DNA from: a virus | Virus genome (UHGV): UHGV-0024713 | Direction: 5' to 3' (one strand) | Length of the DNA stretch: 44,680 nt | Part shown: positions 4,581 to 31,903 of the stretch, in pieces | Layout of the letters: every line of letters begins with the position of its first letter | Position numbering within the stretch: position 1 is the first letter of the stretch | Notes under the pieces: model-generated | Database searches by the model: none | What the model was told of the DNA's origin: nothing | What the model saw: the letters and a program-made list of their open reading frames with translations, nothing else | Position numbers and translations under genes: made by a program

Positions 4581-4714
4581 GTGCGACGATCCGTGATATG
4601 CTTCAGCATAACCGCTTTGAGATAGGCGGTCGGGTATTTCGCAATTACTTCGTGGCGCGTGCCTGGGCGCGCCATATTGGCAAACCAGAGGGGGCAATAC
4701 GATGCTACACGATG
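4577..4714 (+). CDS. Small hypothetical protein (about 45 aa)
   Basis: ATG overlaps stop of 3963..4580 (ATGA); ends overlapping start of 4702..4989. Confidence 0.3.
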
Positions 4715-4989
4715 TGATTTATTGGTTTGGCTTGGCCTGTGGGCTATCCCTGATCACGGCAGTGCTGGGCGCGATATGGGTATTCCTGATTTGGCCCGCG
4801 GGGGAAGCCGCCAGCATTACCCGCATGACGTTTCAGATGTACAAGCGCCGTGGCATCACGGAGCACCCGACCAGGTTGCGCATGTGGTGGCTGTGGTATC
4901 GCGATATGATAGGCGGGCGAACATTCGAAGCCGTCCGGTCGAGTGGATGGGAGTGGAAAGGCGTCGGCAAGTGGTCCATTTTCGATTAA
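4702..4989 (+). CDS. Small membrane protein (95 aa, N-terminal transmembrane helix)
   Basis: Hydrophobic segment FGLACGLSLITAVLGAIWVFLIW. Confidence 0.45.
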   Translation: MLHDVIYWFGLACGLSLITAVLGAIWVFLIWPAGEAASITRMTFQMYKRRGITEHPTRLRMWWLWYRDMIGGRTFEAVRSSGWEWKGVGKWSIFD

Positions 4990-5006
4990 TTATGCAAGCG
5001 TGATAT

Positions 5007-5042
5007 AGTCCCAGTGAGATAAAACTTACTGGGACTTTTTTT
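5007..5042 (+). terminator. Intrinsic terminator
   Basis: Perfect 9-bp stem AGTCCCAGT/ACTGGGACT followed by T7, ending one base before ATG at 5043. Confidence 0.7.
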
Positions 5043-5333
5043 ATGGATAAGCTAAACGAGTGGTTATTCGCCCTTGCGTGTCTTGCTGGTGGATTCGTGG
5101 GCGCACGCATTCATGGCGAGGCAACGAAAGGGCCGTTGAACTTCGTTTTATATGTAGTAGTTGGCTTCCTGTGTGCCATATTTGGTGCGCCAGCTATTGC
5201 CGAGTGGTCTGGCTTATCGGGCGAGCGCACTGTCGCCGGTTTGGGCTTCGTAACCGCAATCTTCTGGATGCCAATCGCCGACCGGATCAGGGAGACTATT
5301 GCGTCGTTCCGACTTCCGGGGGGTGCAAAATGA
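5043..5333 (+). CDS. Holin-like membrane protein (96 aa, about 3 transmembrane segments)
   Basis: Three hydrophobic helices; sits two genes upstream of the endolysin. Confidence 0.5.
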   Translation: MDKLNEWLFALACLAGGFVGARIHGEATKGPLNFVLYVVVGFLCAIFGAPAIAEWSGLSGERTVAGLGFVTAIFWMPIADRIRETIASFRLPGGAK

Positions 5334-5575
5334 TTATCTCCGTCCTGTTGTTTGTTATCATCGGGGCTTCGTCCCTGTTTAACGTGTATGCGCCGTCCGT
5401 CCGGGATGGCTTTTTCGGTCGGGTGCTGTATCTGTTAACGGCAATGGTCTGTTTTATCGGATTGTTGCAAACCGGAGACGTATCTGATACCACCTGGACC
5501 GCGTTAATCTGGCTGTTTGCATTGCGCACGCTGCGTAATGCTGTTTTGAATGGGGTAAAACATGCGATTCAGTGA
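5330..5575 (+). CDS. Second holin/antiholin-like membrane protein (81 aa)
   Basis: Internal ATG of track ORF 5060..5575 overlapping upstream stop (ATGA); 2-3 hydrophobic helices. Confidence 0.45.
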   Translation: MIISVLLFVIIGASSLFNVYAPSVRDGFFGRVLYLLTAMVCFIGLLQTGDVSDTTWTALIWLFALRTLRNAVLNGVKHAIQ

Positions 5576-6053
5576 CAACGGTCTACGATTTACGGCAGCA
5601 TGGGAGCAATTCAGCCCAGTGCCGTATTTTGCGACTAAGAAGGAGCAGGCACGCGGCCTGTACACCTGGGGTTATGGGCATACTGGCACAAATCCGCCGC
5701 GGAGCATTACCCGTGCGGAAGCACTGGAGCTACTCAAGCGCGATGTGGCGTATGCTGAGGACTGGGTGAATAAATACGCGCATAAGAGCATTAACCAGGC
5801 GCAATTCGACGCGCTGGTGGACCTGGTTATCAATGCCGGTCCTGGCCCGATCGTACCGGACCATATCGCCAATGACTTCGATGATGCGGTGCGCCTGGGT
5901 GACTGGGCGAAGGTCCGTGCTACTCTGCCGCAGTTCCGCAAGCAAGGCGGGGAAGTGCTGAAGGGATTAGTCCGTCGAGCAATCGGCAGGCAAGCGCTAT
6001 TCGATGGTAAGCAGTGGGACGTTGCCGAGAAGATCGGACGTAACGCGGCATAA
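5562..6053 (+). CDS. Endolysin, phage lysozyme (GH24-like muramidase)
   Basis: E...Y...GxxTxGYGHTG catalytic-region pattern (AAWEQFSPVPYF...GLYTWGYGHTG) comparable to T4/P22-type lysozymes. Confidence 0.8.
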   Translation: MRFSDNGLRFTAAWEQFSPVPYFATKKEQARGLYTWGYGHTGTNPPRSITRAEALELLKRDVAYAEDWVNKYAHKSINQAQFDALVDLVINAGPGPIVPDHIANDFDDAVRLGDWAKVRATLPQFRKQGGEVLKGLVRRAIGRQALFDGKQWDVAEKIGRNAA

Positions 6054-6069
6054 TACGAGGAGACACAAT

Positions 6070-6231
6070 ATGTTAAAAAGCATTCTTGATCATAACGCCG
6101 ACGCGCTCGCCGCGCTGGCTAAAACCGAAGACCCAGGCGCACGCGCCATTATCGCGGACACAATCAGTCATGCGGGTGTCTTTGATGCGAAGCTGCCGAG
6201 TCCGCCACCGCCCGCAGAGCCAGGGGAGTAA
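6070..6231 (+). CDS. Small proline-tailed hypothetical protein (53 aa)
   Basis: Internal ATG with GAGGAG RBS; C-terminal PSPPPPAEP; no lipobox Cys, so not called an o-spanin. Confidence 0.35.
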   Translation: MLKSILDHNADALAALAKTEDPGARAIIADTISHAGVFDAKLPSPPPPAEPGE

Positions 6232-6237
6232 ACCACA

Positions 6238-6262
6238 AGCCCGGTTAATTCCGGGCTTTTTA
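6238..6262 (+). terminator. Intrinsic terminator after the lysis cassette
   Basis: AGCCCGG-ttaatt-CCGGGCT followed by T5. Confidence 0.65.
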
Positions 6263-6266
6263 TTGC

Positions 6267-6305
6267 TTGACATGCAACCAACTATCAGACCATACTGCGA
6301 CCAAT
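6267..6305 (+). promoter_or_regulatory. sigma70-like promoter (TTGACA-18-CATACT) overlapped by two reverse-oriented motif copies
   Basis: TTGACA 6267-6272; TGCAACCAAC 6273-6282; CATACT 6291-6296; TGCGACCAAT 6296-6305. Confidence 0.45.
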
Positions 6306-6579: not shown

Positions 6580-6639
6580 CGCACCGCAGTGTGGGCCGTG
6601 GTATATTGTCCCCGGTCCTCTCAATCAGGAAGATATACA

Positions 6640-7782
6640 ATGCACCCGCAAACTAAAATCACCGACGAGCAATTGATCGCCGAGTTGCAATACGGCACTA
6701 CCGCGAAAGAGATTGCGAAGAAGTACGGCCTTTCCCTACGAAACGTCTACATGCGCAAAGCCCGCCTGTCGAAGAAAGGTATTGGTCACGGTAACGATGC
6801 CGTAATCCGTAAGCGCGTTGCCGATGGCTTCGGCGTTAAGCGCGTATCCGCCCTGGTGCGCGGCAATGGCGAAGAGGTCATGTCGTGGGTTATCACTGAG
6901 CAGGACAAGGAGCGCCAGCTTGAAGCAATGCGCGCCGTTGTCGAAGGTATGAACAGCGAAATCACCCCGGCAGCACCAGTAAGCGCCCCGCCAGTCCCGA
7001 TCCAGGCACTTGACCTACTCAACCTGTACACCGTGTCAGACTTCCACCTGGGCATGTTGGCATGGGGTGAGGAGACTGGCGAGGACTGGGATATGGCAAT
7101 CGCTGAAGACCTGTTTTACCGCTGGTTTGTCGAAGCCTTCGCCCGCGCACCGGACGCAGGCACTGCCGTAATCAATATCCTCGGTGATATGGCGCATTTT
7201 GATAGCCTCGATGCCGTCACCCCAGCTAGTGGTCACATCCTGGACGCAGATACCCGATACCAGAAGTTGGTCCGCTACATGATTCGCATGGTGCGCAACG
7301 TGGTAGACCTGGCGCTGCAAAAACACCACAAAATCAAACTTCTAATCGTCCAGGGGAATCATGACGAGTCGGGCATGATTTGGCTGGCTGAAATGTTCAA
7401 TACTCTGTATGAGAACGAGCCGCGCGTCGATGTGGATACGTCGCCGGATGTCTACAAAATGGTGCAACACGGCAAGACCACGCTATTCTTCCACCACGGG
7501 CACAAAGCGCGCTTCGATGCTATCGAAACAGTCATGATTTCTAAATTCAGACAGGCTTTCGGGTCCAGCGAATACAGCTACGCGCATGTAGGCCACTTGC
7601 ACCACCAGAAGATTGTAGAATCCCGCAACATGATTGTTGAACAGCACAGGACGCTAGCAGCGAAAGACGCCTACGCCAGTCGTGGCGGTTGGATGTCCGG
7701 TCGCAGCGCCAACGTCATTACCTACAGCGCCAACTACGGCGAAGTAGCGCGCTTAACCATTAGCCCGGAAATGTTGAAGTAA
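6640..7782 (+). CDS. Metallophosphoesterase (calcineurin-like) with N-terminal helix-turn-helix
   Basis: Start chosen at internal ATG with AGGAAG RBS; HTH-like TAKEIAKKYGLSLRNVYMRK; phosphoesterase motifs SDFHLG, GDMAHFD, QGNHDE. Confidence 0.55.
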   Translation: MHPQTKITDEQLIAELQYGTTAKEIAKKYGLSLRNVYMRKARLSKKGIGHGNDAVIRKRVADGFGVKRVSALVRGNGEEVMSWVITEQDKERQLEAMRAVVEGMNSEITPAAPVSAPPVPIQALDLLNLYTVSDFHLGMLAWGEETGEDWDMAIAEDLFYRWFVEAFARAPDAGTAVINILGDMAHFDSLDAVTPASGHILDADTRYQKLVRYMIRMVRNVVDLALQKHHKIKLLIVQGNHDESGMIWLAEMFNTLYENEPRVDVDTSPDVYKMVQHGKTTLFFHHGHKARFDAIETVMISKFRQAFGSSEYSYAHVGHLHHQKIVESRNMIVEQHRTLAAKDAYASRGGWMSGRSANVITYSANYGEVARLTISPEMLK

Positions 7783-7803
7783 CGGCAGCCAGTAAGCCAC
7801 CCA

Positions 7804-7828
7804 GCCCGCCGATTTGGTGGGCTTTTTT
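7804..7828 (+). terminator. Intrinsic terminator; TATAAT hexamer just downstream at 7837-7842
   Basis: GCCCGCC-gattt-GGTGGGC (one G-U pair in RNA) followed by T6. Confidence 0.5.
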
Positions 7829-9860: not shown

Positions 9861-11381
9861 ATGACCGTTAACGTTGACAACCAGCACCCGCTCTATGCGC
9901 GCATCGCGCCAGAGTGGAAAATGATCCGTGACTGCGTAGCAGGGGAGCGCGCCGTGAAGGCGTGCGGGCCATTGTACCTGCCACACCCAGCCAGTGGCGA
10001 CACTACCGACCCGAAATCCCGGGCACGGTATAAGGCGTATAAGCAACGTGCTGTCTTCCTGAACGCCACCGCCCGCACACTGAATGCGCTGTTAGGCGTC
10101 GCCTTTGCGAAACCGGTAAGTCTGGACCTTTCCGGGGCTATGGCTGACCTGATTGACGACGTAGACGGTAGCGGTATGCCATTGCCGCAACTTCTGCGCG
10201 GTGCTATGTCGGAAGTGCTGCAATCGGGCCGCGCGGGCTTTATGGTGGACTACGACCGCCAGGCTAACTTTGATGAACTGGGTAACGTAGTGCCGCAGAC
10301 CGCCGCCGAGATGGCGTCACACCGCCCGCTTATCCGCCTGTATACGGCAGAGCAGATCATCAACTGGCGGCAGACCCACGGCGTCGACACGCTAATCGTG
10401 CTGAAGGAGACGGACGAAATCAGCACCGAAGACCCGGACGACTTCGCAAACCACGAAGTTACGATCTGGACCGAGCTTCGCATGATTAACGGTGCGGCAC
10501 ACGCCCGCCGCTGGTTTTACAACGCGGACACGTCCGAGGTGCAAATGGACTTGCCGCGGGGATTCACCCGCACCGACCTTGTACCACTGGTGGATGCCGC
10601 CGGTAACGCGCTTACGCAACTGCCTTTCTGTTGGTGTGGCGCGGTGGATAACAATGCAACACCAGATGCCGCACCGCTGGCGGATATCGCGTCAATCAAC
10701 ATTAAGCACTACAACGCCGAAGCAGACGTCGCCGAGATTGCGCACATTGTGGGTCAACCTACCCTCATTGCGACTGGTCTGACCCAATCATGGGCGGACA
10801 AGAACCTGAAGGGCGGCATTGCCCTCGGTGCGACTAAGGGCGTTATCCTTGGCCAGAACATGGACGCTAAACTGATTCAGGCCGAGGAGCGCAACTTGTC
10901 TGTAGCACTGTGTGAACGCCGAGAATTGCAAATGGCTAAACTGGGCGCGGCCCTGGTCGAGAAGGGGACCGCACCCAAGACGGCAACCGAGGCGGCCTAC
11001 GATGCGCAGACAGATAACAGTATCCTGTCACTGATTGCCGGTAACGTTGAGAAGGCTTTCAACCGTGCGCTGCAAATCGTTAAGCTGTTCACCGGCGACA
11101 CCGCCGACCAGCGCGTAACGCTGAACAAGTTCTACACTGAAATCACGGTTGATGCGCAGCTTATGACCGCGATGATGGCAGGTGTGCAGACCGGTACTGT
11201 CCGACTGGCTGACTTTATCAAGTGGATGATGGCCCAGGGCGTTATTGATGACTCGCAAACCGTCGAGCAGGTGGAAGACGAATTGCGAAATCAGAATCCA
11301 TTGCCTCAAATGTCCCCCGATGCGGTAGAATCTACCGAAGAAGACCCGGGCAAGGTAGCGGACAATGGCGAAGACAATTAA
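9861..11381 (+). CDS. Portal protein (putative)
   Basis: 506-aa ORF immediately after the terminase large subunit; call by synteny and size. Confidence 0.6.
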   Translation: MTVNVDNQHPLYARIAPEWKMIRDCVAGERAVKACGPLYLPHPASGDTTDPKSRARYKAYKQRAVFLNATARTLNALLGVAFAKPVSLDLSGAMADLIDDVDGSGMPLPQLLRGAMSEVLQSGRAGFMVDYDRQANFDELGNVVPQTAAEMASHRPLIRLYTAEQIINWRQTHGVDTLIVLKETDEISTEDPDDFANHEVTIWTELRMINGAAHARRWFYNADTSEVQMDLPRGFTRTDLVPLVDAAGNALTQLPFCWCGAVDNNATPDAAPLADIASINIKHYNAEADVAEIAHIVGQPTLIATGLTQSWADKNLKGGIALGATKGVILGQNMDAKLIQAEERNLSVALCERRELQMAKLGAALVEKGTAPKTATEAAYDAQTDNSILSLIAGNVEKAFNRALQIVKLFTGDTADQRVTLNKFYTEITVDAQLMTAMMAGVQTGTVRLADFIKWMMAQGVIDDSQTVEQVEDELRNQNPLPQMSPDAVESTEEDPGKVADNGEDN

Positions 11382-12468
11382 TCAATATATGGCGGATCGA
11401 ATGATTCGCCGTCACATCTTCACCCAGCGCCTGAGCAATGATCAGGCGCGGAGGGTGCTGGCTATGTGGGAGAAGTTCCGGCCCACTTTACTGGGTAAGC
11501 TGACCGAGTTACTTGATGGCAAAAAGTCCATGAACAACAAGGCACTTACCACTCTGTTAACGCAACTAGACAAGACCGTCAAAACGGAACTGCGCGCCGA
11601 GTTTAAGGCGCTGGCGGAGAACCTTCAGGAGTTCGCCGACACCGAGGCTGATTATCTCGCTGACACACTAACGGCAGCGATCCGGCCCGCTGTCGCCGTA
11701 CCGGCTGTTGAAGTAGTTGGCGTTGTTACCGGCGCGCAGATTGCAGCGACGGCAATGAAAAACCCGTTCCAGGGTAATACGATGATGCAATGGCCTGACT
11801 CACTCTCTGAGTGGACCAGGACGCAGATCGGTAATCAGGTGCGCGCTGGATTCATCCAGGGCAAGCCGACTATGGAAATTATTGCGGACGTGAGGCGCGC
11901 GCTAGGTGGTCGCAGTGCGCAAGCCATCTCGAGCGTTGTTAAATCCGCAGTCAACCACTATGCGGCTACAGCCCGCGAACTAATGGTAAAAGCAAATGAC
12001 GATATTCTCGAAGGTCGCCAGTGGTTATCTACATTGGACACGCATACTTCTCCCATGTGCCAGCTACGCGATCGCCTGTTTTATCCGGTTGATGTTACTC
12101 CCGACACCAAAGGAAAGCGCGGCGGTAAAGTGGTGGCGGGGTCACAATATGGCGCTGGTCCGGGCAAGTTGCATTATTGTTGCCGGTCGACGGAGACGTG
12201 GAAGGTTAAAGGCATGGAGGATTGGCCCAGTGGTAAGCGTCCAGCACTGAAGGCTGACGCAGGCCGATTGCTGAGTGAGCAGGTCGACGCGCAGACTGAT
12301 TTCTTCTCATGGGTGCAGCGCCAGCCGCGCCATATCCTGGAAGAATTATACGGAGTGCAACGCGCCGACCAGATTATGCGCGGCGTGAAAGTGCCGAAGA
12401 TGTTTACCGATTCTGGCGAACTGATGACTATCGCACAGCTTAAAAACCGGGGGTTATGGCGTGATTAA
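11365..12468 (+). CDS. Head morphogenesis / minor head protein (Mu F / SPP1 gp7-like position)
   Basis: 367-aa ORF overlapping the portal 3' end; call by position. Confidence 0.5.
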   Translation: MAKTINQYMADRMIRRHIFTQRLSNDQARRVLAMWEKFRPTLLGKLTELLDGKKSMNNKALTTLLTQLDKTVKTELRAEFKALAENLQEFADTEADYLADTLTAAIRPAVAVPAVEVVGVVTGAQIAATAMKNPFQGNTMMQWPDSLSEWTRTQIGNQVRAGFIQGKPTMEIIADVRRALGGRSAQAISSVVKSAVNHYAATARELMVKANDDILEGRQWLSTLDTHTSPMCQLRDRLFYPVDVTPDTKGKRGGKVVAGSQYGAGPGKLHYCCRSTETWKVKGMEDWPSGKRPALKADAGRLLSEQVDAQTDFFSWVQRQPRHILEELYGVQRADQIMRGVKVPKMFTDSGELMTIAQLKNRGLWRD

Positions 12469-12790
12469 ATATGCAGCGATAGGACTGGTTATCGGTCTGG
12501 TGGTAGGCTTCTGGCTGGGTGATTCCCACCGCGCTGCCGTTGTGGCGAAAGCGGCGCAACAAGCGCAAGCAAAAGCCCAGCGGCAGCAAACTAAGGTTGT
12601 CGAGCGATCCGTGCAGGCCGAACAGGCCCGCGACGTGGAATACCGGACTATCACGAAAGAGGTTGTTAAATATGTTACGCGTCCTAACCGCCCTGATTGT
12701 AGTTTTGATGCTGAGCGCGTGCGGATCAAGCAACGTGCCGTTGATGCCGCTAACGGAGTCGGCACTGCGACCGCCGTGCAAGTTCGATAA
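12461..12790 (+). CDS. i-spanin (Rz-like inner-membrane spanin)
   Basis: N-terminal signal-anchor helix AAIGLVIGLVVGFWLG followed by Ala/Gln-rich helical periplasmic domain. Confidence 0.6.
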   Translation: MIKYAAIGLVIGLVVGFWLGDSHRAAVVAKAAQQAQAKAQRQQTKVVERSVQAEQARDVEYRTITKEVVKYVTRPNRPDCSFDAERVRIKQRAVDAANGVGTATAVQVR

Positions 12791-12902
12791 CCCGTCCGCA
12801 GACCCCGACGAGGATTTGATGATTGACGTGAAAAATATGGAATGCGGGGCGAAGCTGAGGGCGCAGGTGTTGGAGTTGCAGCAAATAATTAAGGGGCCGT
12901 AA
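12672..12902 (+). CDS. o-spanin (Rz1-like outer-membrane lipoprotein), overlapping the i-spanin in another frame
   Basis: Internal ATG of track ORF 12519..12902; signal peptide plus lipobox LSAC; proline-rich mature part with Cys. Confidence 0.6.
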   Translation: MLRVLTALIVVLMLSACGSSNVPLMPLTESALRPPCKFDNPSADPDEDLMIDVKNMECGAKLRAQVLELQQIIKGP

Positions 12903-12916
12903 TGGCCCATTTTCCG

Positions 12917-13681
12917 TTATCGCGGAATACCGCAAATCTCGTTGAGAGTTTTCACGTCCAGCGCCACCGCCGTGGATTTTGGCTTGTCCGGGTATGGGAT
13001 GAATTGCTCAACTTCAGGCCACGCCTTAACCAGCTTCTTGTCAGTATTGTGCAGGTCCAGCACACCGGTAACGGTGAGTTTGAACGCATCATACTTCGCG
13101 CGCAACTCGCGACGGGCCTTGTCGTTACGGTCAAGGCGCTTACAGAAGTCATGGTCCGCCGGGTAGTCTACGCGACCGCGAGGGAGATATATCGGCAGCG
13201 CTTTCCCGTCCGCGTCAACTTCACATACTGACGCAAGCATAACCTCCTCGAACCCAGGTACGATATCGCCGAGATCGGGGGATAGCTTATTCATGTATTT
13301 ATATTCCCAGTATCCGCGATGTACGCGGTATTGGCGACCATCACCGCTCAAGGACAAGGTGCGAACATTTCCGCCTGCGTTGATTTCGAAAGTGGCGTCA
13401 TAAACGCGGCCTATACCCTTCGGGAGGCCTATGTCATAGCGATATGTTGCCTTGTTGGTGTAGACGCAGACGCAGTATATTGGCGACTTGGCACCTTCTA
13501 GTGCTTCGATGTGTGCGCGTAACTCGGCGAAAGTGCGAATGCCCTCCGGCATACAGTCCAGCGTGATTGCGTACGCCAGGTCGCGAGAGTCCATCATGAT
13601 TGATTTGGCTTCGGTAGCGATTTCATGGTCGCGCAGGATGTTAGCCAGAATCTGGTTTTTAATGTCTTTTGTCAGTCTCAT
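12917..13681 (-). CDS. Hypothetical protein (254 aa), antisense moron
   Basis: Start at internal ATG with GAGGA RBS; opposite strand to flanking structural genes; no recognisable motif. Confidence 0.6.
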   Translation of the reverse strand: MRLTKDIKNQILANILRDHEIATEAKSIMMDSRDLAYAITLDCMPEGIRTFAELRAHIEALEGAKSPIYCVCVYTNKATYRYDIGLPKGIGRVYDATFEINAGGNVRTLSLSGDGRQYRVHRGYWEYKYMNKLSPDLGDIVPGFEEVMLASVCEVDADGKALPIYLPRGRVDYPADHDFCKRLDRNDKARRELRAKYDAFKLTVTGVLDLHNTDKKLVKAWPEVEQFIPYPDKPKSTAVALDVKTLNEICGIPR

Positions 13682-13723
13682 TTTTGTGTCCTCGTGTTGG
13701 GGCTTTCGCCCCATTTGGCTTAG

Positions 13724-14131
13724 TTAAAGTGCTTCTAGAATCTCGTAAAACTTATTCGCCAGCGCCTGGCGGCGTTCGAATTTTTCAGTGATAACCAATT
13801 CCGGGCGGTTAAATAGCTTTGCGTGGGTGTTCCAATTGAGGATTTCCGTTTCCATTATTTTCTTCCGGTTGTAGTCGGTGTTTTTGATGCTAAATTCCTT
13901 GATAGCGTCATTAAGAAAATCAGTCATACACTCAACGTCTGTTCTCTTAACTTCGAACGAACGGGCCTCGATTGGGCTATTTGTGCGAAGTACGACGACT
14001 CCGCCGTGGTAGGTGTCGACTACCATATACTTATAAGTCACCCCATCCCACTCCGGATCGAAAGGGCGCCCAAATACGTCGTCGGCTTTCCACACTTTCT
14101 GGTACGGTGTTTCTTTGATTAATGTTGGCAT
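13724..14131 (-). CDS. Hypothetical protein (135 aa), antisense moron, AT-richer than surroundings
   Basis: AAGGA RBS; preceded on the minus strand by TTGCAA-18-TATATT with motif copies; visibly lower GC by eye. Confidence 0.6.
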   Translation of the reverse strand: MPTLIKETPYQKVWKADDVFGRPFDPEWDGVTYKYMVVDTYHGGVVVLRTNSPIEARSFEVKRTDVECMTDFLNDAIKEFSIKNTDYNRKKIMETEILNWNTHAKLFNRPELVITEKFERRQALANKFYEILEAL

Positions 14132-14160: not shown

Positions 14161-14184
14161 TGCGACCAATATATTGCAACCAAT
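14161..14184 (-). promoter_or_regulatory. Promoter candidate for the antisense cassette, with motif pair
   Basis: + strand TGCGACCAAT (14161-14170) and TGCAACCAAT (14175-14184); on minus strand TTGCAA-18-TATATT. Confidence 0.45.
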
Positions 14185-14287
14185 ACCAGGATTGCAAGCG
14201 AATTTTGCGATTATTTTTATCGCTGATAATATTAAAGGCGTGAAGTCGAGCGGGTGGCCCGCTCTGCCACAATCCCAGGGGGATAGC

Positions 14288-14992
14288 ATGAAACTTACTA
14301 AAGCTGAATATGACGCGTTGCCGGAAGGTATGAAGGCGCTTTTTGTTGCCGATGGTGACGGGTATAAATCAACGTTCATGACCGCCGAAGAAGTACAGGC
14401 GGAGATCAAGGGTCTGAAAGACAACAACGCGAAGCTGGTTAGCGAGAAGAAAGCAGAAGCCGAACGCCGCGCCGAAGCCGAGCGCCTTGCGAAAGAGAAA
14501 GAGGAAGCCGCCGCGCGCAAAAATGGCGACCTCGAAGCGATCGACAAGTCCTGGAAAGATAAGTTTGCGAAACACGAAGCAGACACATCGGGAAAAATCG
14601 AAGCCTACCGCAAGCAGATCCACGATCTAACCATCGGCAGCGCTGCCAAAGACCTGGCGTCGAAGCTGTTCGGTAAGAATGCCGGAATCATGCAACGCCA
14701 CGTTATGGACCGCCTAACGCTGGAAGACGGCGAAGACGGCAGCTTGAAAGTGCGTGTCTTGCAGGATGGCAAACCGTCCGCGCTGACAATGGAAGAGCTT
14801 GAAAAAGAGTTCCGTAATAACGCCGATTTTGCATCCGTCCTGGCTGGCACGCCAGCCGGTGGCGCGCCTAGCAAACCGACGCAGGTTGTCGAAGATGTGA
14901 AGTCGAAAATCACGATGGGCCACAGCTTCGGTATCACTGACCTTACGAAACAGGCGGGGGATATCATCGCGAAGATGGGCGACGACGAGTAA
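14288..14992 (+). CDS. Scaffolding protein (putative)
   Basis: Internal ATG with RBS; Ala/Glu/Lys-rich coiled-coil sequence immediately upstream of the major capsid gene. Confidence 0.55.
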   Translation: MKLTKAEYDALPEGMKALFVADGDGYKSTFMTAEEVQAEIKGLKDNNAKLVSEKKAEAERRAEAERLAKEKEEAAARKNGDLEAIDKSWKDKFAKHEADTSGKIEAYRKQIHDLTIGSAAKDLASKLFGKNAGIMQRHVMDRLTLEDGEDGSLKVRVLQDGKPSALTMEELEKEFRNNADFASVLAGTPAGGAPSKPTQVVEDVKSKITMGHSFGITDLTKQAGDIIAKMGDDE

Positions 14993-15089: not shown

Positions 15090-16190
15090 ATGTCTTTAAC
15101 AGTGTTCCAGCGTAAACTCGTTACCGCGGTTACGCAAATGATCCCCGACAACCTGAACGTTTTCAACGCTGCCGCCAATGGCGCTGTTGTTCTCGGTACT
15201 GGTGAAGTGCTGAAGGATGTTGTAGAAAAAATGTCCGTAGGCTTGATCGCCAACCTCGTTACCGACCGTAATGCCTACGCCCCTGTCGGCACTCCGGCAA
15301 CCGCTAAAGTGCTGGCGCGTATGCTGACCAACTCGGTCAACCTTTCCGCGAAAGTGGGTCCGGTAGCAATCACTAAGGCTATGATGGCTAAGATCGAAAC
15401 CAACGTTAACAGCGTTGCGGCTGAGATTGCGGCACAGGCTACTCAAGCGATTATGCTGCACTACCTGAAAGCGGGTATCGGTGCGGGTAAAGCGGCGATC
15501 GAAAGCAACGCAGCGGCAAAATACACCCAACCGGCGCGCGTTGACGGCGTTGGCGGTCGTACCTTCCCGACCCTGGCAGACTTCCCGCTGGCGGCTTCTA
15601 AGTTCGGCGATCAGGCGTCTTTGATTAAGTCCTGGTTTATGGACGGCGTTACCTGGGCAAACTTCATTGCATACCAGGCGCTACCGTCTGCCGAGCAGGT
15701 ATTCGCAATCGGCGATCTGCAGGTAATGGGTGATGGCCTGGGCCGTCGTTTCATTATCTCCGATGCCGCTGCCGATGCTATGGGTACGGGTAACATGCTG
15801 GGTCTGGTCCCCGGCGCTGTTGCGGTTACCACCAACGGCCTCGATATGCTGGCGCAGGAAAAAGGCGGTAACGAGAACATCGAACGCTGGTGGCAGGGTG
15901 AGTTCGACTTCAACGTGGCTGTTAAAGGCTACCGTCTGAAGGCGTCCGCTCGTACCCCGATCGAAGGCGTCCGCTCGTTCAAGCTGTCAGATATCACCAC
16001 TAAGGATAACTGGGAGCTTGACCAGGGCCAGGTAGACAACGCACCGGCAACCGTGCAGGACGTTGGCGCTGTGGGCGATGGCGATACTAAAGGTCGCCGT
16101 AAAACCCAGGCCGCACAGGAAGTGCCTACCCGTCACATCAAGGAAACCGCTGGCGTACTGGTTACGCTGACGGCTACCACAGCGTCTTAA
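15090..16190 (+). CDS. Major capsid protein (putative)
   Basis: 366-aa ORF after scaffold, followed by a strong terminator; call by synteny. Confidence 0.6.
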   Translation: MSLTVFQRKLVTAVTQMIPDNLNVFNAAANGAVVLGTGEVLKDVVEKMSVGLIANLVTDRNAYAPVGTPATAKVLARMLTNSVNLSAKVGPVAITKAMMAKIETNVNSVAAEIAAQATQAIMLHYLKAGIGAGKAAIESNAAAKYTQPARVDGVGGRTFPTLADFPLAASKFGDQASLIKSWFMDGVTWANFIAYQALPSAEQVFAIGDLQVMGDGLGRRFIISDAAADAMGTGNMLGLVPGAVAVTTNGLDMLAQEKGGNENIERWWQGEFDFNVAVKGYRLKASARTPIEGVRSFKLSDITTKDNWELDQGQVDNAPATVQDVGAVGDGDTKGRRKTQAAQEVPTRHIKETAGVLVTLTATTAS

Positions 16191-16209
16191 TCGACGCACA
16201 TCCCAAATG

Positions 16210-16233
16210 GGCGGGCTTATGCCCGCCTTTTTT
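16210..16233 (+). terminator. Strong intrinsic terminator after the capsid gene
   Basis: GGCGGGC-ttat-GCCCGCC followed by T6. Confidence 0.75.
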
Positions 16234-24958: not shown

Positions 24959-25566
24959 CCACCTTTAAACTATACGGCGTCTTAGGACGTCGTTTCGGTA
25001 AAGTGCATAAGCTGGACTGCTTCACACCGGGCGAGGGAATCACCGGCCTGTGTGTGAAGTTACCAGGCTTACAGGACTTTCTAATGTCGGCCCACCTGGA
25101 CAACATGATGTTCAAGGTGCGCAAGGGTAATCACACAATGACCGGTTACGACGAGTTGGGCGAGTTCCACGGCAACCGCGTCGTGACCATCGCACCGGTT
25201 ATGACCGGCGCAAAACGCGGACTAGGCCAATTACTGGCGGGCGTAGCCATCGTGGTGGCGTCGTTCTACACCGGCGGCCTTGCGACTGCCGCCTTTGGTG
25301 CTTCCGCCGCTACCGCTGCCGCTATTGGTACGGCGACGTTCTCGTTCGGGATGTCGATGGCGCTGGGCGGTGCTATGCAATTGCTGTCGCCACAGCCGAA
25401 AGGATTGCAGACACGGCAGGACGTGGATAACAAAGCGTCGTATGCGTTCGGCGGACCGGTAAACACGACCGCACAAGGTACGGCACTTGGTGTATTATGG
25501 GGCGAGCGTGAGATCGGCGGCGCTATTATTTCAGCCGGAATCGTAACCGAGGACTTGAACGAATGA
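24949..25566 (+). CDS. Tail assembly protein I-like
   Basis: 205-aa protein between K and J with Gly/Ala-rich hydrophobic C-terminal half. Confidence 0.7.
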   Translation: MAMTTFKLYGVLGRRFGKVHKLDCFTPGEGITGLCVKLPGLQDFLMSAHLDNMMFKVRKGNHTMTGYDELGEFHGNRVVTIAPVMTGAKRGLGQLLAGVAIVVASFYTGGLATAAFGASAATAAAIGTATFSFGMSMALGGAMQLLSPQPKGLQTRQDVDNKASYAFGGPVNTTAQGTALGVLWGEREIGGAIISAGIVTEDLNE

Positions 25567-28500
25567 CGATTGTATACGACGTCACAGGCCATAAAGGCGG
25601 CGGAGGCAAACAGCACACCCCACAAGAGACGCCAGATAGCCTGCATTCGCTGGCTAAAATCCGCATCTTGCTCGCACTGGGTGAAGGTGAGTTCGAAGGC
25701 ATTCCCGACCCCAACGAATTACGGCAGCGCGTTTATTTGGACGGCACACCGATCCAGAACGCCGACAGATCCGAAAACTTCCCCGGCGCGCGCGTGGAGT
25801 TCCGCCCCGGCACACAGCACCAGGACGTGATTCACGGATTTTCCGCGGTGGAAAGTGAGCAAACCGTAGGCGTAAAACTGGAATACGGCACGCCGTGGGT
25901 GCGCCAGATTAACGACATCAGTCTTGACGCCGTGCGCATTCGAATCGGCATTCCGGCCCTGTACACCAACGAAGACAACGGCGACCTGGTGGGCGGGCGC
26001 ATCGACTACAAAATAGTTGTGTATACGGACAACGCTGATCCGCGAGAGTTTACCTTCGCTGCCGTTGGTAAAACAATGTCGCTGTACGAGCGCGATCACC
26101 GCATCGAGTTACCGCCGAACGTGAACGCCGGCTGGCGCGTGGAAGTGCACCGCACAACGGCAGATTCCACATCGGCGAAAGTGGTCAATGATATCCGGGT
26201 GCAATCCATTACGGAGATTATCGACGCCCGCCTGCGATATCCGCTAACCGCGCTGTTGTTCGTGGAGTTCGACGCTAAGGCGTTCCAGAATATCCCGCGC
26301 GTATCCATTAAGTGTAAAGGCCGCAAAGTGCTGGTTCCGAACAACTACGACCCGATTAATCATACCTATTCGGGCGACTGGGATGGCACGTTCAAACGCG
26401 CATGGACGGATAACCCCGCGTGGCACTGGTACGATATTTGTATTACTGAGCGCTTCGGCCTCGGTCGGCGTATCAAACCGCAAATGTTAAACCGGTACGC
26501 GCTCTACCAGATTGCGCAGCGCTGCGATCAACTGGTCAGCGACGGCAACGGCGGGCAGGAAATCCGATTTAAGAATGATATGTACATCCAGTCGCAGACA
26601 GACGCCTGGACCGTGCTTAAGGATTTAGCTGCCATCTTCGCCGGGATGACCTGGTGGGGAAACCAAATGTTGAATATCGTCAGTGACCAACCGGTCGCAG
26701 CAGTGTCGCACACTATCACCAACGCCTCGGTGATTGATGGTCGATTCGACTACGCATCTGGCAGCCAGAAAACGCGGTACTCCACTTTCGCGGTAGCATA
26801 CGGCAACCCGAAAAACCACTATGATGACGCTATCGCAACGGGCCAGCGCGTCGAACTGGTACGCCGCCATAAGATTAACCGTCTGGATATCACGGCGATC
26901 GGCTGTACGCGTGAATCAGAAGCGCAACGCCGGGGGCACTGGGCGCTAATCTCCAACCAGCTTGACCAGCAAGTTAGCTTTAAGGTTGGCATGGAAGGAC
27001 TATTCTTTATTCCGGGTAGTGTAGTCGCGATCGCCGATACAAACATTTCTGGCGGCTTCGAGACACGCGGCGGTCGCCTGTTGCCAGATCCTGGCACGCG
27101 GACGGTGCTGAACACAGACAGCGAAATCACGTTCCGCCCTGGCGATAAATTCCTGGTACGCACCGATAGCGGTAATGTGGAGACTCGCGAGATCGCCAGC
27201 GTCAACGGCAACAAGGTTACGCTAAAAACCGCACTGGATGCCGACCCGATTCCGGACCAGCCGTTTTGCGTTGATGGCGACGATATCCAGTTGCAGAAGT
27301 TCCGCATCACCGACCTGGAATATGACGACTCTACCAGCACTTTTTCAGTGCGCGGGATCGAGTACAACGATAGCAAATATGATGCCGTTGATAATGGCGC
27401 TCGCCTTGACCCTGGCATCTTCACGCAAGTGCCTGACGGCGTAATGAAGGGGCCGGAATCCGTGACCATCACCCCGTCGCAGATTTCATCGCAAGGCCAG
27501 CTAATCACCAACGTGGATATTGTCTTCCCGCCGGTGAAGGATGCCGTTGTGTATGAAATCCAGTGGCGACGTACCAGCTTGCAGAATATGGCGATCCAAT
27601 GGGGTAACGACTGGGTGAACATCCCCCGCACGGCATCGAACGGTGCGCACATCCCGAACGTGTTTTCCGGCAACTATCAGGCACGCGTCCGCGCGATCGG
27701 TATGGGCGAGATTTCATCCCCGTGGGTGTCGTCTGCCATCACGCCGATCGAAGGTCGTCTCGGCGGGCTTAACGCGCCTATCATCACCAACGCGATTTCG
27801 GGCCTCCACCAAATTTTGTGGAAGTGGAACCACAACAACGCCGCGACGGATATCTCTTACACCGAGCTTGAAGTGCGCAAGACTGGTGAAACGGAATGGA
27901 AGTTCTTAACCAACGTCCCATATCCGGGGGCGGAGTACGCCCAAACGTCGCTGGAGTTCGGCATCTACCAGCAGTTGCGCGCCCGTGTAGCGGATAAAAT
28001 CGGAAACCTGTCGGACTGGTCAGATCCGTTTGAAGGCCAGGTGAGTGACAAAGTTGACGAATACATGAAGGGGCTTGATGACGAGTTCTTGACTTCCGAG
28101 GATGGTAAACACTTCCAGGAAGCAATAGACACCATGCCGCAGGGTATTTACGAGGCCATGCTCACCGACGCACAGCAAATGTTTAACGCCCGCGCCGAAT
28201 ATCAAGGGATCTACGCAGAAATCAAGGTGGCGTATAACGTGGCGGTGGATGCTAACGAGGCCGTGGCGCAACTGGAGACGTTGATCGGCACGCGCCTTGA
28301 CGATGCGGAAGCGTCAATCCACACGTTGCAGACCGCGCAAAGCACGCACGAACAAGCGTTCGCCCAGTACCAGCAGACTGTTGCCGCTAAATTCGGGGAA
28401 CAGGAAGCTGCCATCCAGCAGGTACAAACGGCAACGGCAGACGTAGCTGGCGCACTGGCTGAGTATAAGACCCATGTAGCGGCGCAGTTCGGTCAGCAGT

Positions 28501-29009
28501 CCGCAGCTATTGAGCAGAAGATGACGTCTTCGTTTAACCATGCTGGGGGTAGCGCTACGTATAGCCTTAAGGCTGGCGTGACGTATAACGGGACTTACTA
28601 TGACGCCGGTATGCAGCTTTCGGTTGTAGCGGAAGGGGGCGCGGTTAAATCGCGTATTGCGTTCAAGGCTGACCAGTTCTACATCATGCACCCGTCAAAT
28701 GGGTCGCTTTCGTCCGCGTTTATCGTTGACGGGGGTCAGGTGTACATCGACACGGCACGCATCAAGAACGCGTCAATCAACTTTGCGCAGATCACAGACA
28801 CGCTCCAATCCAACAACTGGATTCCGGGGGCCAGGGGCTGGCGTATTGCGAAAGATGGCGGTGCTGAATTTAACGAGGTAACCGTACGCGGCAACTTGTT
28901 CGCGACTACTGGTAACTTCGGATTCTCTGGCGGGTCTGTGCAGATCGACGCTACAGGCGTAAACGTCCCATTACCTGGAGGGGGTCGGGTTAAAGTCGGT
29001 ACGTGGTAA
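25563..29009 (+). CDS. Tail tip / host specificity protein J-like (central tail fibre)
   Basis: 1148-aa protein following M-L-K-I, same order and size class as lambda J. Confidence 0.9.
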   Translation: MTIVYDVTGHKGGGGKQHTPQETPDSLHSLAKIRILLALGEGEFEGIPDPNELRQRVYLDGTPIQNADRSENFPGARVEFRPGTQHQDVIHGFSAVESEQTVGVKLEYGTPWVRQINDISLDAVRIRIGIPALYTNEDNGDLVGGRIDYKIVVYTDNADPREFTFAAVGKTMSLYERDHRIELPPNVNAGWRVEVHRTTADSTSAKVVNDIRVQSITEIIDARLRYPLTALLFVEFDAKAFQNIPRVSIKCKGRKVLVPNNYDPINHTYSGDWDGTFKRAWTDNPAWHWYDICITERFGLGRRIKPQMLNRYALYQIAQRCDQLVSDGNGGQEIRFKNDMYIQSQTDAWTVLKDLAAIFAGMTWWGNQMLNIVSDQPVAAVSHTITNASVIDGRFDYASGSQKTRYSTFAVAYGNPKNHYDDAIATGQRVELVRRHKINRLDITAIGCTRESEAQRRGHWALISNQLDQQVSFKVGMEGLFFIPGSVVAIADTNISGGFETRGGRLLPDPGTRTVLNTDSEITFRPGDKFLVRTDSGNVETREIASVNGNKVTLKTALDADPIPDQPFCVDGDDIQLQKFRITDLEYDDSTSTFSVRGIEYNDSKYDAVDNGARLDPGIFTQVPDGVMKGPESVTITPSQISSQGQLITNVDIVFPPVKDAVVYEIQWRRTSLQNMAIQWGNDWVNIPRTASNGAHIPNVFSGNYQARVRAIGMGEISSPWVSSAITPIEGRLGGLNAPIITNAISGLHQILWKWNHNNAATDISYTELEVRKTGETEWKFLTNVPYPGAEYAQTSLEFGIYQQLRARVADKIGNLSDWSDPFEGQVSDKVDEYMKGLDDEFLTSEDGKHFQEAIDTMPQGIYEAMLTDAQQMFNARAEYQGIYAEIKVAYNVAVDANEAVAQLETLIGTRLDDAEASIHTLQTAQSTHEQAFAQYQQTVAAKFGEQEAAIQQVQTATADVAGALAEYKTHVAAQFGQQSAAIEQKMTSSFNHAGGSATYSLKAGVTYNGTYYDAGMQLSVVAEGGAVKSRIAFKADQFYIMHPSNGSLSSAFIVDGGQVYIDTARIKNASINFAQITDTLQSNNWIPGARGWRIAKDGGAEFNEVTVRGNLFATTGNFGFSGGSVQIDATGVNVPLPGGGRVKVGTW

Positions 29010-30005: not shown

Positions 30006-30227
30006 TTACCACTCCCGTGATTTAACTGAAACAGTGCCGGAAAAATTGCCGTCACTATCGGCAGACAGACCAGTGAAACGCATGTCCACATTTCCGGAAG
30101 GGACTTTTTGCCCGTCAACGTAGCGCAACATGCAGCTACCGTAAGCCGTCGTAACGCAATCGCCGTTGTTGCGCTCCACAGCACAACCGGATAAAAGAAC
30201 CGCACAAATCATAATTAAAGTTTTCAT
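30006..30227 (-). CDS. Small outer-membrane lipoprotein (73 aa), candidate superinfection-exclusion protein
   Basis: Signal peptide MKTLIMICAVLLSGC with lipobox LSGC; two further Cys in the mature part; GGAGA RBS; motif-bearing promoter region upstream. Confidence 0.6.
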   Translation of the reverse strand: MKTLIMICAVLLSGCAVERNNGDCVTTAYGSCMLRYVDGQKVPSGNVDMRFTGLSADSDGNFSGTVSVKSREW

Positions 30228-30281
30228 GGTATCATCTCCTATATTTGGTTGAGTTTTAGTATTACACCGCTCGATCAAGAA

Positions 30282-30291
30282 TGCAACCAAT
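30282..30291 (-). promoter_or_regulatory. Motif copy in the divergent region between lipoprotein and tail-fibre genes
   Basis: + strand TGCAACCAAT, reading ATTGGTTGCA about 55 nt upstream of the lipoprotein start on the minus strand. Confidence 0.4.
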
Positions 30292-30307
30292 TTATGAGGA
30301 TTCAGCT

Positions 30308-31903
30308 ATGGCAGCGGGTACACTATCCGTAACGAATAACAGCAAGGCGGTTGTAGGGGTGGGCACAACGTTTACCTCGTTTAACGCCGGCGACTTCTTA
30401 ACGCTGGTGGTAGGACAAGTCCCCTACACCGTAGCAATCGCGTCCATTGAAAGCGACACCGCGCTTACGCTGGTGTTACCGTTCGACGGCCCATCGGCAA
30501 CCGGCCTTGCGTGGGATGGAGTTAAGCGCGATACCATGTCACTGGCAACGATGGGCGTTACCGTACAGGCGCAGAAAGCACTACGCTTTATGATCGCGGA
30601 CGAAAACAACTGGCGCGCAATCTTCGGCGATGCGGAAGAAATCACGGTGACGCTGCCAAACGGGCAAGTAATGCAAGGCATGTCATGGGGATATCTGTCC
30701 TCCTTGCTCAAGGAAGTAGACCCGATTGAGATGCGCGACCTCGCAGCGCAAGCCGAAGCCTCAAAATCGGCAGCGCAAGGATTTCGTAATGAGGCCGAAG
30801 GCTTCAAGACCGAGACGGCTGGCATTCGCGACGCCACCAATCAGATTAAGGCGGATACGCAGGCGATCCACGACGCCACTAATACCATCAAGACGCAGAC
30901 TGACCAGATTAAGACTGATACGCAGGTCATCAAAGACCAGACGAACCAGATCAAGACCGACACCGGCGTTATGAGGGACGAGGCCAACATCGCGAAGACG
31001 GACGCGCAAGCTGCCAGCGCTGCCGCGCGGGGATTCCGTGACCAGGCCGAGGAGTGGGCGCAAAGCGTTAACGCGGATAACCTGCTAACCAAATCAGGCA
31101 ACCTGGCAGGTCTTGCGGATAAAACTGCGTCGTGGGCAAACCTTATGCCTACCGGCCCGCTTCGCGTTGGGGCAGACCCTATTGCCGATCTTGACGCTAC
31201 GACAAAGCGCTGGGTTGCCCTTAACACCAGAATGGACGAGCACATTGCAGGCCTTAATGTTGACGTGACAAGTACAAATATAAAAGTGTATCCGGGGGAA
31301 TGCTATCTTCCATCTGAAGATAAAATATTGCGCCTGGAGGCGCCGAAGACTATCGCGCACAGTGGCTTAACAGCGGCAACGAAGTATTATATTTACGCAT
31401 ATAATGAAAGCGGATCGTTGGGGATTGAAGTCTCAACAACCGAAAATGTCAAATACGGATATAAAGCCAGCACTAAAAAAGACGACCCAAGTCGACGCTT
31501 CATTGGAATGTTTTACTTCACTGGAGGGTCCGAGGTTGCTATTTGCAAATTAATTGACGGTGAGTGTGTGCATTTATTTCCCTGGGGAAGTATTGGGCGA
31601 GTATTAAACAATGGAAAAGCCACTACTGATGCACCTGTAGATTATGAAAAATTTGTCCCTTCGGCATCCTTTACTAGTGTTAAAGTTGCAGTGACTAACA
31701 CCGCAACTACGATTGTTGCCGCTGATATAGGACCGATTGGGTTTGACTATGTAACTAACGTTCAACCGTATTACTGTAAGTTTTTAATAGACATACTTCC
31801 TAATATTGCTGGTGGCGGCTCTCTTAAGTACAAGTATACTTCCGCCCCACAAGACGCAGGAGGTTTTTTCATAGATGTTGCGGGGTATAAATATGACCGG
31901 TGA
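30308..31903 (+). CDS. Tail fibre protein with repeat-rich shaft and AT-richer C-terminal domain
   Basis: Internal ATG with GAGGA RBS; IKxDTQ-type periodic repeats; 3' third visibly lower GC by eye. Confidence 0.7.
   Translation: MAAGTLSVTNNSKAVVGVGTTFTSFNAGDFLTLVVGQVPYTVAIASIESDTALTLVLPFDGPSATGLAWDGVKRDTMSLATMGVTVQAQKALRFMIADENNWRAIFGDAEEITVTLPNGQVMQGMSWGYLSSLLKEVDPIEMRDLAAQAEASKSAAQGFRNEAEGFKTETAGIRDATNQIKADTQAIHDATNTIKTQTDQIKTDTQVIKDQTNQIKTDTGVMRDEANIAKTDAQAASAAARGFRDQAEEWAQSVNADNLLTKSGNLAGLADKTASWANLMPTGPLRVGADPIADLDATTKRWVALNTRMDEHIAGLNVDVTSTNIKVYPGECYLPSEDKILRLEAPKTIAHSGLTAATKYYIYAYNESGSLGIEVSTTENVKYGYKASTKKDDPSRRFIGMFYFTGGSEVAICKLIDGECVHLFPWGSIGRVLNNGKATTDAPVDYEKFVPSASFTSVKVAVTNTATTIVAADIGPIGFDYVTNVQPYYCKFLIDILPNIAGGGSLKYKYTSAPQDAGGFFIDVAGYKYDR
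30760..31060 (+). repeat. Periodic in-frame repeats in the fibre shaft (ATNQIKADTQAI / TNTIKTQTDQIKTDTQVIKDQTNQIKTDT)
   Basis: Recurring cagattaag / cagatcaag / accgacacc units. Confidence 0.6.

Follow-up and report, generated by a model that had tools for sequence, protein, structure and literature searches.

The viral genome UHGV-0024713 (44,680 bases; this whole stretch is referred to below as the window) is a complete siphovirus genome, a coliphage of the genus Dhillonvirus type, with a DNA identity of ~92% to EP23, PEC14 and bob. Among its head genes lie two overlapping open reading frames (ORFs), which together occupy exactly 12461–12902, from the start of a gene assigned here to an i-spanin, the inner-membrane-anchored subunit of a predicted two-component spanin, to the end of a gene assigned to the o-spanin, its outer-membrane lipoprotein partner. 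A preliminary description of the locus, made from the sequence alone, had claimed that the two ORFs overlap in different frames, and the ORF list agrees, placing the second ORF in the +1 frame relative to the first with an overlap of 119 nucleotides (nt). The coordinates of these genes, of the neighbouring head genes, of the lysis cassette and of candidate expression signals are collected in Table 1; the terminator-like hairpins and the promoter-like site were located by consensus scans only.

Table 1. Spanin genes, selected neighbouring and lysis genes and candidate expression signals in the window.
Feature	Position	Strand	Basis and remarks
Predicted i-spanin gene	12461..12790	+	109 residues, GTG start; ORF list; phrog_2536 'Rz-like spanin', E 4.1e-35
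Predicted o-spanin gene	12672..12902	+	76 residues, ATG start, +1 frame; phrog_5672, E 2.5e-26, and phrog_1267, E 6e-12, both 'Rz-like spanin'
Doubly coding overlap	12672..12790	+	119 nt; 'overlapped' spanin architecture as in P2 lysB/lysC; ORF coordinates
Shine-Dalgarno-like GGGGG	12449..12453	+	7 nt before i-spanin GTG, within 3' end of head-morphogenesis gene
Shine-Dalgarno-like AAGAGG	12657..12662	+	9 nt before o-spanin ATG, within i-spanin gene
Palindromic hairpin GGGCC-GTAAT-GGCCC	12894..12908	.	Across o-spanin stop, between convergent genes; found on both strands; short stem, weak
Head-morphogenesis gene (SPP1 gp7-like)	11365..12468	+	367 residues; phrog_241, E 4.6e-117; stop overlaps i-spanin start by 8 nt
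Head scaffolding gene	14288..14992	+	Next head gene downstream of pair; phrog_206, E 3.1e-51 over residues 39-271
Holin 1 gene	5043..5333	+	phrog_2359 'holin', E 1.3e-31
Holin 2 gene	5330..5575	+	phrog_2508 'holin', E 1.4e-27
Endolysin gene (phage lysozyme)	5562..6053	+	phrog_7, E 1.7e-36; PF00959, E 8.7e-21
Terminator-like hairpin before holin	5007..5036	+	Strong; consensus scan
Terminator-like hairpin after holin-endolysin unit	6237..6258	+	Strong; 8-bp stem, 6 GC pairs, T-rich tail
Sigma-70-like promoter match	6267..6296	+	10 of 12, right after hairpin 6237-6258; consensus scan
Terminator-like hairpin just before terminase genes (TerS)	7803..7823	+	Strong; 9-bp stem, 6 GC pairs, tail TTTTTG
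Terminator-like hairpin after major head gene	16209..16228	+	Strong; consensus scan

Features of the two gene products

The i-spanin product begins MIKYAAIGLVIGLVVGFWLGDSHRAAVV and is 91–95% identical to the i-spanins of EP23, JL1 and the HK578 type. Residues 4–20 (YAAIGLVIGLVVGFWLG) form a hydrophobic, uncharged stretch with the character of an N-terminal signal-anchor, and the remainder of the chain contains a conserved core (RTITKEVVKYV..P.R..C.FD) with one predicted periplasmic cysteine (Cys80). A single-sequence AlphaFold model of low confidence, with a mean predicted local distance difference test score (pLDDT) of 59, places helices at residues 5–72 and 84–97, with the conserved Cys-containing linker between them. 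The preliminary description had proposed a signal-anchor followed by a helical periplasmic domain; the anchor is borne out by residues 4–20, while the helical domain is supported weakly by this model. In most close relatives an in-frame TTG lies 30 nt 5' of the i-spanin GTG and was taken by the ORF heuristic as the start (119 residues). The equivalent codon of the window (12431–12433) is TCG and is likewise not a start codon in the related loci L017 and L020, which supports GTG 12461 as the true start. At the other end of the gene, the i-spanin of one Dhillonvirus subgroup, represented by L007, L018, L019, L020 and L006 (Oekolampad), terminates 7 codons sooner (102 residues, with an overlap of 98 nt; the window equivalent of the missing part is 12770–12790), leaving the o-spanin unchanged.

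The frame of the o-spanin is open over 12519–12902, with the ATG at 12672, 211 nt downstream of the i-spanin start, as its plausible start codon. An alternative start, TTG 12663, leaves no spacing after the AAGAGG element. The product begins MLRVLTALIVVLMLSACGSS; its N-terminus MLRVLTALIVVLMLSAC is followed by GSS.. and it is 95–99% identical to the other Dhillonvirus copies. A pattern-based check for a signal peptidase II signal recovered the lipoprotein with an LSAC lipobox that had been described at this position: MLRVLTALIVVLMLSA is followed by a cysteine, with a basic residue (Arg3), a hydrophobic core and a lipobox L-S-A-C ending in Cys17, and with Gly at +2. The predicted mature part of 60 residues carries two further conserved cysteines (Cys36 and Cys58). 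The phrog_5672 profile is 47 positions long and corresponds to the C-terminal part of the protein only. When both strands of the window were scanned with the lipoprotein-signal pattern, four distinct ORFs were found, compared with a mean of 0.57 in 30 mononucleotide shuffles, and only that of the o-spanin overlaps a membrane-anchored ORF, namely its end. Two other matches (27238–27444 and 13596–13727) fall within larger genes, in alternative or antisense frames, and were judged to be due to chance.

Conservation and selection in both frames

Codon-position diversity was calculated from 18 distinct Dhillonvirus sequences over the 442 nt of the spanin region, which contains no indels and in which the o-spanin ORF is open in 18/18. 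Where only the i-spanin is encoded, the third codon position of the i-spanin frame has a diversity of 0.216, compared with 0.078 at the first and 0.038 at the second; where only the o-spanin is encoded, the values in the o-spanin frame are 0.216 at the third position and 0.094 and 0.038 at the other two. This pattern shows purifying selection on the i-spanin frame 5' of the overlap and on the o-spanin frame 3' of it. Within the 119-nt overlap itself, diversity is constrained in both frames.

The preliminary description had named two observations that would count against the o-spanin assignment, a +1-frame ORF that is not conserved and a lipobox cysteine that is absent from homologues. An alignment of the i-spanin served as the sole query to collect 80 related loci from IMG/VR, so that conservation of the o-spanin in them is an independent test. 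In 80/80 of these loci, down to an i-spanin identity of ~30%, the i-spanin gene is adjoined at its 3' end by an ORF with a lipobox cysteine. The frame of this ORF is +1 in 79 loci and +2 in one, the distant L086, in which the gene is separated. A signal-plus-lipobox heuristic recovered the ORF in 70 loci; the other ten, all of the Jersey type, have an LLNGC box, and their ORF was found once the +1 frame was translated directly. Neither kind of loss was therefore encountered. Alignment of the Dhillonvirus proteins with those of Jerseyvirus (SETP3) and Kagunavirus (K1ind2) shows no variation at Cys80 of the i-spanin or at three cysteines of the o-spanin (Cys17, Cys36 and Cys58). The Jersey-type loci with the box L-L-N-G-C, which has Asn at −2 and in which the cysteine and the rest are conserved, are L027, L030, L037, L038, L041–L043, L046, L052 (SETP3) and L059. 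The usual lipobox consensus is not known to allow Asn at this position.

These data bear directly on the idea that the +1-frame ORF is open by chance, the 109-residue gene alone being real, which might be suggested by existing annotation. RefSeq EP23 has just a 52-residue version of the o-spanin (EP23p06, L001 4380–4538, corresponding to about 12744–12902 of the window) that starts after the lipobox and is without the signal peptide, and many GenBank records of Dhillonvirus do not call the ORF a spanin, both genes being labelled 'hypothetical protein'. A chance frame is at odds with an ORF that is open and free of indels in all 18 Dhillonvirus sequences, with the concentration of o-only diversity at position 3 of its own frame, with the match to phrog_5672 and with the small number of lipobox ORFs expected per shuffled genome. 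The explanation is already refuted by the conservation across the 80 loci and by the codon-position diversity, and we give it practically no probability.

Gene context, function and expression

The lysis cassette of the window, consisting of two holin genes and an endolysin gene (5043–6053), is on the same strand as the spanin pair and 6.4 kilobases (kb) upstream of it. From the cassette to the spanins the gene order is a 53-residue ORF, a DNA-repair exonuclease gene (6589–7782), TerS, TerL, portal (9861–11381) and head morphogenesis. Downstream of the pair, two minus-strand genes (12917–13714, with an Nmad5 domain, and 13724–14131) precede the scaffold gene and the major head protein gene (15090–16190). 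This order and the location of the cassette bear out the earlier proposal that the pair is embedded between head genes and not in the lysis cassette; the further claim that it directly follows the head-morphogenesis gene also holds, the GTG of the i-spanin gene overlapping the stop codon of that gene by 8 nt. The scaffold gene was called mechanically as 14174–14992 from TTG 14174, and ATG 14288 is its likely start.

The position is shared by relatives. Dhillonvirus-like and Jersey/Kagunavirus-like loci, 68 of the 80 in all, have a head-morphogenesis gene upstream of the pair, and most have a scaffold gene downstream; the synteny is kept also in loci whose flanking head genes are only ~25–30% identical to those of the window. 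In SETP3 (Jerseyvirus) and K1ind2 (Kagunavirus) the order is TerL–portal–head morphogenesis–(decoration)–spanins–scaffold–capsid and the pair is annotated as spanins. Eight remoter homologous pairs (L023, L026, L029, L035 and L082–L085) are instead found just 3' of an endolysin gene, and in the first four the pair is directly downstream of holin and endolysin genes. In L026 the core of the i-spanin is 61% identical to that of the window (E 1e-18) and the o-spanin 34% (E 2e-11). The endolysins beside these remoter homologues belong to five enzyme families (Phage_lysozyme, GH19, Hydrolase_2, Amidase_2 and GH108). Their gene context supports a role of the pair in lysis and is the strongest functional evidence available here.

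A search of the genome gave no other spanin candidate, and no spanin-like ORF follows the endolysin gene in the window. The 53-residue ORF after the cassette (6070–6231) was considered as a second spanin and rejected; it matches phrog_11068 (function unknown), and neither a hydrophobic segment nor a lipobox is seen in its sequence. Apart from the o-spanin ORF, the one credible lipoprotein ORF, at 30006–30227 on the minus strand, was considered as a unimolecular spanin of the T1 gp11 type and also rejected, as its product lacks a C-terminal membrane segment and is weakly Cor-like.

The pair was compared with the class of two-component spanins, following the definitions of Summer et al. 2007 and Kongari et al. 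2018. The genes of that class are adjacent in an embedded, overlapped or separated arrangement; those of the window are overlapped, and the arrangement is kept in relatives. The i-spanin has the single N-terminal transmembrane domain and, at low confidence, the largely helical periplasmic C-terminal part of the class, and the o-spanin has the outer-membrane lipoprotein signal, with a lipobox cysteine and without Asp at +2. Periplasmic cysteines suited to intermolecular disulfides are present in both (Cys80 of the i-spanin, Cys36 and Cys58 of the o-spanin). Both subunits also fall into the 'Jersey' spanin family described below and into PHROGs 2536 and 5672/1267, and the supplement sequences of EP23 and HK578 match. 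Judged from these sequence characteristics, the two ORFs very probably encode a two-component spanin of the overlapped architecture.

Such a spanin would be expected to act as in the λ Rz/Rz1 model. The N-terminal transmembrane anchor of the i-spanin would place its C-terminal part in the periplasm, and the established sorting rules for lipoproteins predict lipidation of the o-spanin at Cys17 and its transport by the Lol system to the outer membrane. The two subunits would meet through their C-terminal parts, forming disulfide-stabilised complexes that span the periplasm. After holin triggering and digestion of the wall by the endolysin, these complexes would fuse the inner and outer membranes and free the phage.

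Several points weigh against this interpretation and against the expression scheme that goes with it. We found no experimental test of this spanin family, the function being assigned from sequence features, homology and gene context. The i-spanin is short, at 109 residues, and the helical nature of its periplasmic domain is read from the low-confidence single-sequence model. A Pfam scan (E ≤ 0.1) returned no spanin model, with only DUF7904 for the i-spanin (13 bits, cut-off 30) and nothing for the o-spanin, and an NCBIfam scan of both proteins gave nothing relevant; because of the missing spanin matches, the pair is not placed in the λ Rz/Rz1 families. In addition, the consensus scan identified no promoter for the unit from TerS to the o-spanin gene, and co-transcription with the head genes is deduced from gene overlap and the consensus terminator scan only.

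Some of these points would also suit an envelope module without a lysis role, for example a lipoprotein for superinfection exclusion or receptor masking, together with a membrane partner, or an accessory of head assembly, the location of which would reflect that role: the pair lies within the block of head genes, at a distance from the holins and endolysin, it has no curated spanin match in Pfam or NCBIfam, and no experimental test of its family was found. Against this stand the homologues of both proteins directly after holin or endolysin genes in eight remoter loci, the lack of any other spanin candidate in a genome whose host has an outer membrane and the presence of every topological hallmark of two-component spanins, including the conserved periplasmic cysteines. 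Spanin genes at a distance from the lysis cassette are also familiar from other phages, as in the pseT.3/pseT.2 genes of T4 (PMC6139136). We regard a module of this kind as highly improbable and retain the spanin assignment.

The hairpins at 5007–5036 and 6237–6258 enclose the holin–holin–endolysin cassette and suggest that it is a transcription unit of its own. The hairpin at 7803–7823 suggests that a separate unit begins there and runs from TerS to the o-spanin gene; between 7823 and 12894 the plus strand contains no strong terminator-like hairpin, only weak candidates, and the palindrome across the o-spanin stop codon is a possible bidirectional terminator. The 8-nt stop/start overlap, together with this terminator scan, suggests that the spanin genes are the last of a TerS–TerL–portal–head-morphogenesis transcript and are translationally coupled to it. 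On this scheme, which agrees with the co-transcription with late structural genes proposed in the preliminary description, the late packaging/head transcript, and not the holin–endolysin unit, would be the source of the spanins, and their translation would be coupled.

Expression of genuine spanins from a promoter of their own, or by read-through from the lysis cassette, would agree with the failure to find a promoter for the block from TerS to the o-spanin gene, and the hairpins invoked above are consensus matches only. The promoter scan as a whole was uninformative, giving 9 sites compared with 8.6 in shuffles. A private promoter fits poorly with the overlap between the i-spanin and head-morphogenesis genes, with a ribosome-binding site inside the latter and with the lack of any promoter-like site on the plus strand within 11365–12461, and read-through would have to pass the two strong terminator-like hairpins (6237–6258 and 7803–7823) between the endolysin and TerS genes. 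Either route appears improbable compared with the packaging/head transcript.

The distribution of the homologues invites an evolutionary reading. The synteny and the canonical position of the remote homologues are observed, and from them it may tentatively be proposed that the spanin module moved from a site after the endolysin gene into the head-gene operon in an ancestor of Dhillonvirus and Guernseyvirinae (Jerseyvirus, Kagunavirus), the placement, retained between the head-morphogenesis and scaffold genes despite the divergence of these to ~25% identity, being selected and not accidental; as a whole this proposal is rather improbable. Translational coupling to a scarce head gene, for example, could set a late, low dose of spanin independently of the terminator-flanked holin–endolysin unit, and both selection and dose control are speculation.

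Relation to known spanins and neighbouring genes

The spanin pair and its position among the head genes are already known for this phage group. Kongari et al. 2018 (PMC6139136) placed EP23, HK578, JL1 and SSL-2009a in an overlapped 'Jersey' spanin family, which also has Jersey, SETP3, K1G, K1H, K1ind1–3 and others. The supplement to that paper lists an i-spanin of 109 residues at 4624–4954 and an o-spanin of 76 residues at 4835–5066 for EP23, with a 119-nt overlap in the +1 frame, and the same two lengths and overlap for HK578; the ribosome-binding site agcttaaaaaccGGGGGttatggc that it gives for both phages contains the same GGGGG element as the window. The window thus agrees with EP23 and HK578 in lengths, overlap, frame, GGGGG element and location after the head-morphogenesis gene, and nothing of substance distinguishes it from the listed Dhillonvirus-type members of the family, to which its genome has ~92% DNA identity. 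The Jersey and Kagunavirus members differ more, being only ~40–45% identical, with a longer i-spanin (128–129 residues) and often the unusual LLNGC lipobox. Among Dhillonvirus records, Oekolampad and TheodorHerzl carry 'i-spanin' and 'o-spanin' annotations at the same position, JLBYU60 has a 76-residue 'putative spanin' and RefSeq EP23 has two 'Rz-like spanin' genes. Published genome notes give the same PHROGs at gene numbers that are far apart, in Jerseyvirus SeF1 (PMC9409062), with spanins Gp_009 and Gp_010 and with holins and endolysin at Gp_063 to Gp_065, and in Dhillonvirus vB_EcoS_P78 (PMC12677095), with spanin gene 0040 and endolysin gene 0033.

Other well known spanins resemble the pair in part. 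The T7 genes 18.5/18.7 lie between the two terminase genes, and the P2 pair is located in the P2 lysis cassette. The λ i-spanin has 153 residues, compared with 109 in the window, and the mature λ o-spanin 40, compared with 60; the mature o-spanin of the window is also less proline-rich than that of λ (7 Pro in 60). The λ Rz1 gene is embedded and not overlapped, and the λ pair directly follows the endolysin gene. The likeness to λ Rz/Rz1 would consist of an inner-membrane-anchored helical protein and an outer-membrane lipoprotein, with periplasmic cysteines for disulfides (model in PMC6139136). In LysB/LysC of P2, the overlapped prototype, the start of the o-spanin gene likewise falls within the i-spanin gene, in the +1 frame, and the o-spanin gene ends beyond it (PMC6139136); sequence similarity to the P2 proteins was neither sought nor found. 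T4 PseT.3/PseT.2 and T7 gp18.5/gp18.7 provide a precedent for spanin genes unlinked from holin and endolysin genes; the T4 pair has the separated architecture, and both pairs differ from that of the window in sequence family and neighbouring genes.

If the assignment is correct, this phage has, with these two genes, a full set of lysis genes (two holins, endolysin, i-spanin and o-spanin), which is useful for assessment or engineering of the phage for therapy. The significance is limited mostly to correct annotation, as overlapped o-spanin genes are often missed or truncated by automated procedures, with RefSeq EP23 and the 'hypothetical' GenBank entries as examples. Dispersed lysis genes are already documented for T4, and the conserved site of the pair within the head genes adds a modest further case.

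Region 11365–13714 has matches in 158 phage records at ~92% identity, nearly all from phages of Escherichia or Shigella (among them EP23, PEC14, the bov phages and JLBYU60). Over the first 25 kb, Shigella phage 1b, bob and SECphi18 are ~91.5% identical across 97–98% of the query. With the nearest records at ~91.5–92%, below the usual species line of 95%, the window may represent a Dhillonvirus species absent from the phage collection searched.

Of the two minus-strand genes between the spanins and the scaffold gene (12917–14131), one encodes 265 residues that include an Nmad5 domain (PF18757, E 2e-55); the other is a 135-residue ORF without a family match. The content of this slot differs among Dhillonviruses, which have the Nmad5 gene alone, the 135-residue gene alone, neither, or, in EP23, the Nmad5 gene with a RusA-like gene; the slot is absent from Jersey and Kagunavirus records, where the scaffold gene directly follows the spanins. 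The slot has the appearance of a hot spot at which accessory genes are inserted.

The minus-strand lipoprotein ORF at 30006–30227 encodes 73 residues (MKTLIMICAVLLSGC...) and lies between a large tail-tip gene (25563–29009) and a tail-fibre gene (30281–31903). Its product matches phrog_4281 (E 1e-32; function unknown) and, weakly and through the signal peptide only, the Cor superinfection-exclusion family (E 2e-4); it probably serves in exclusion, as a lipoprotein that blocks the receptor.

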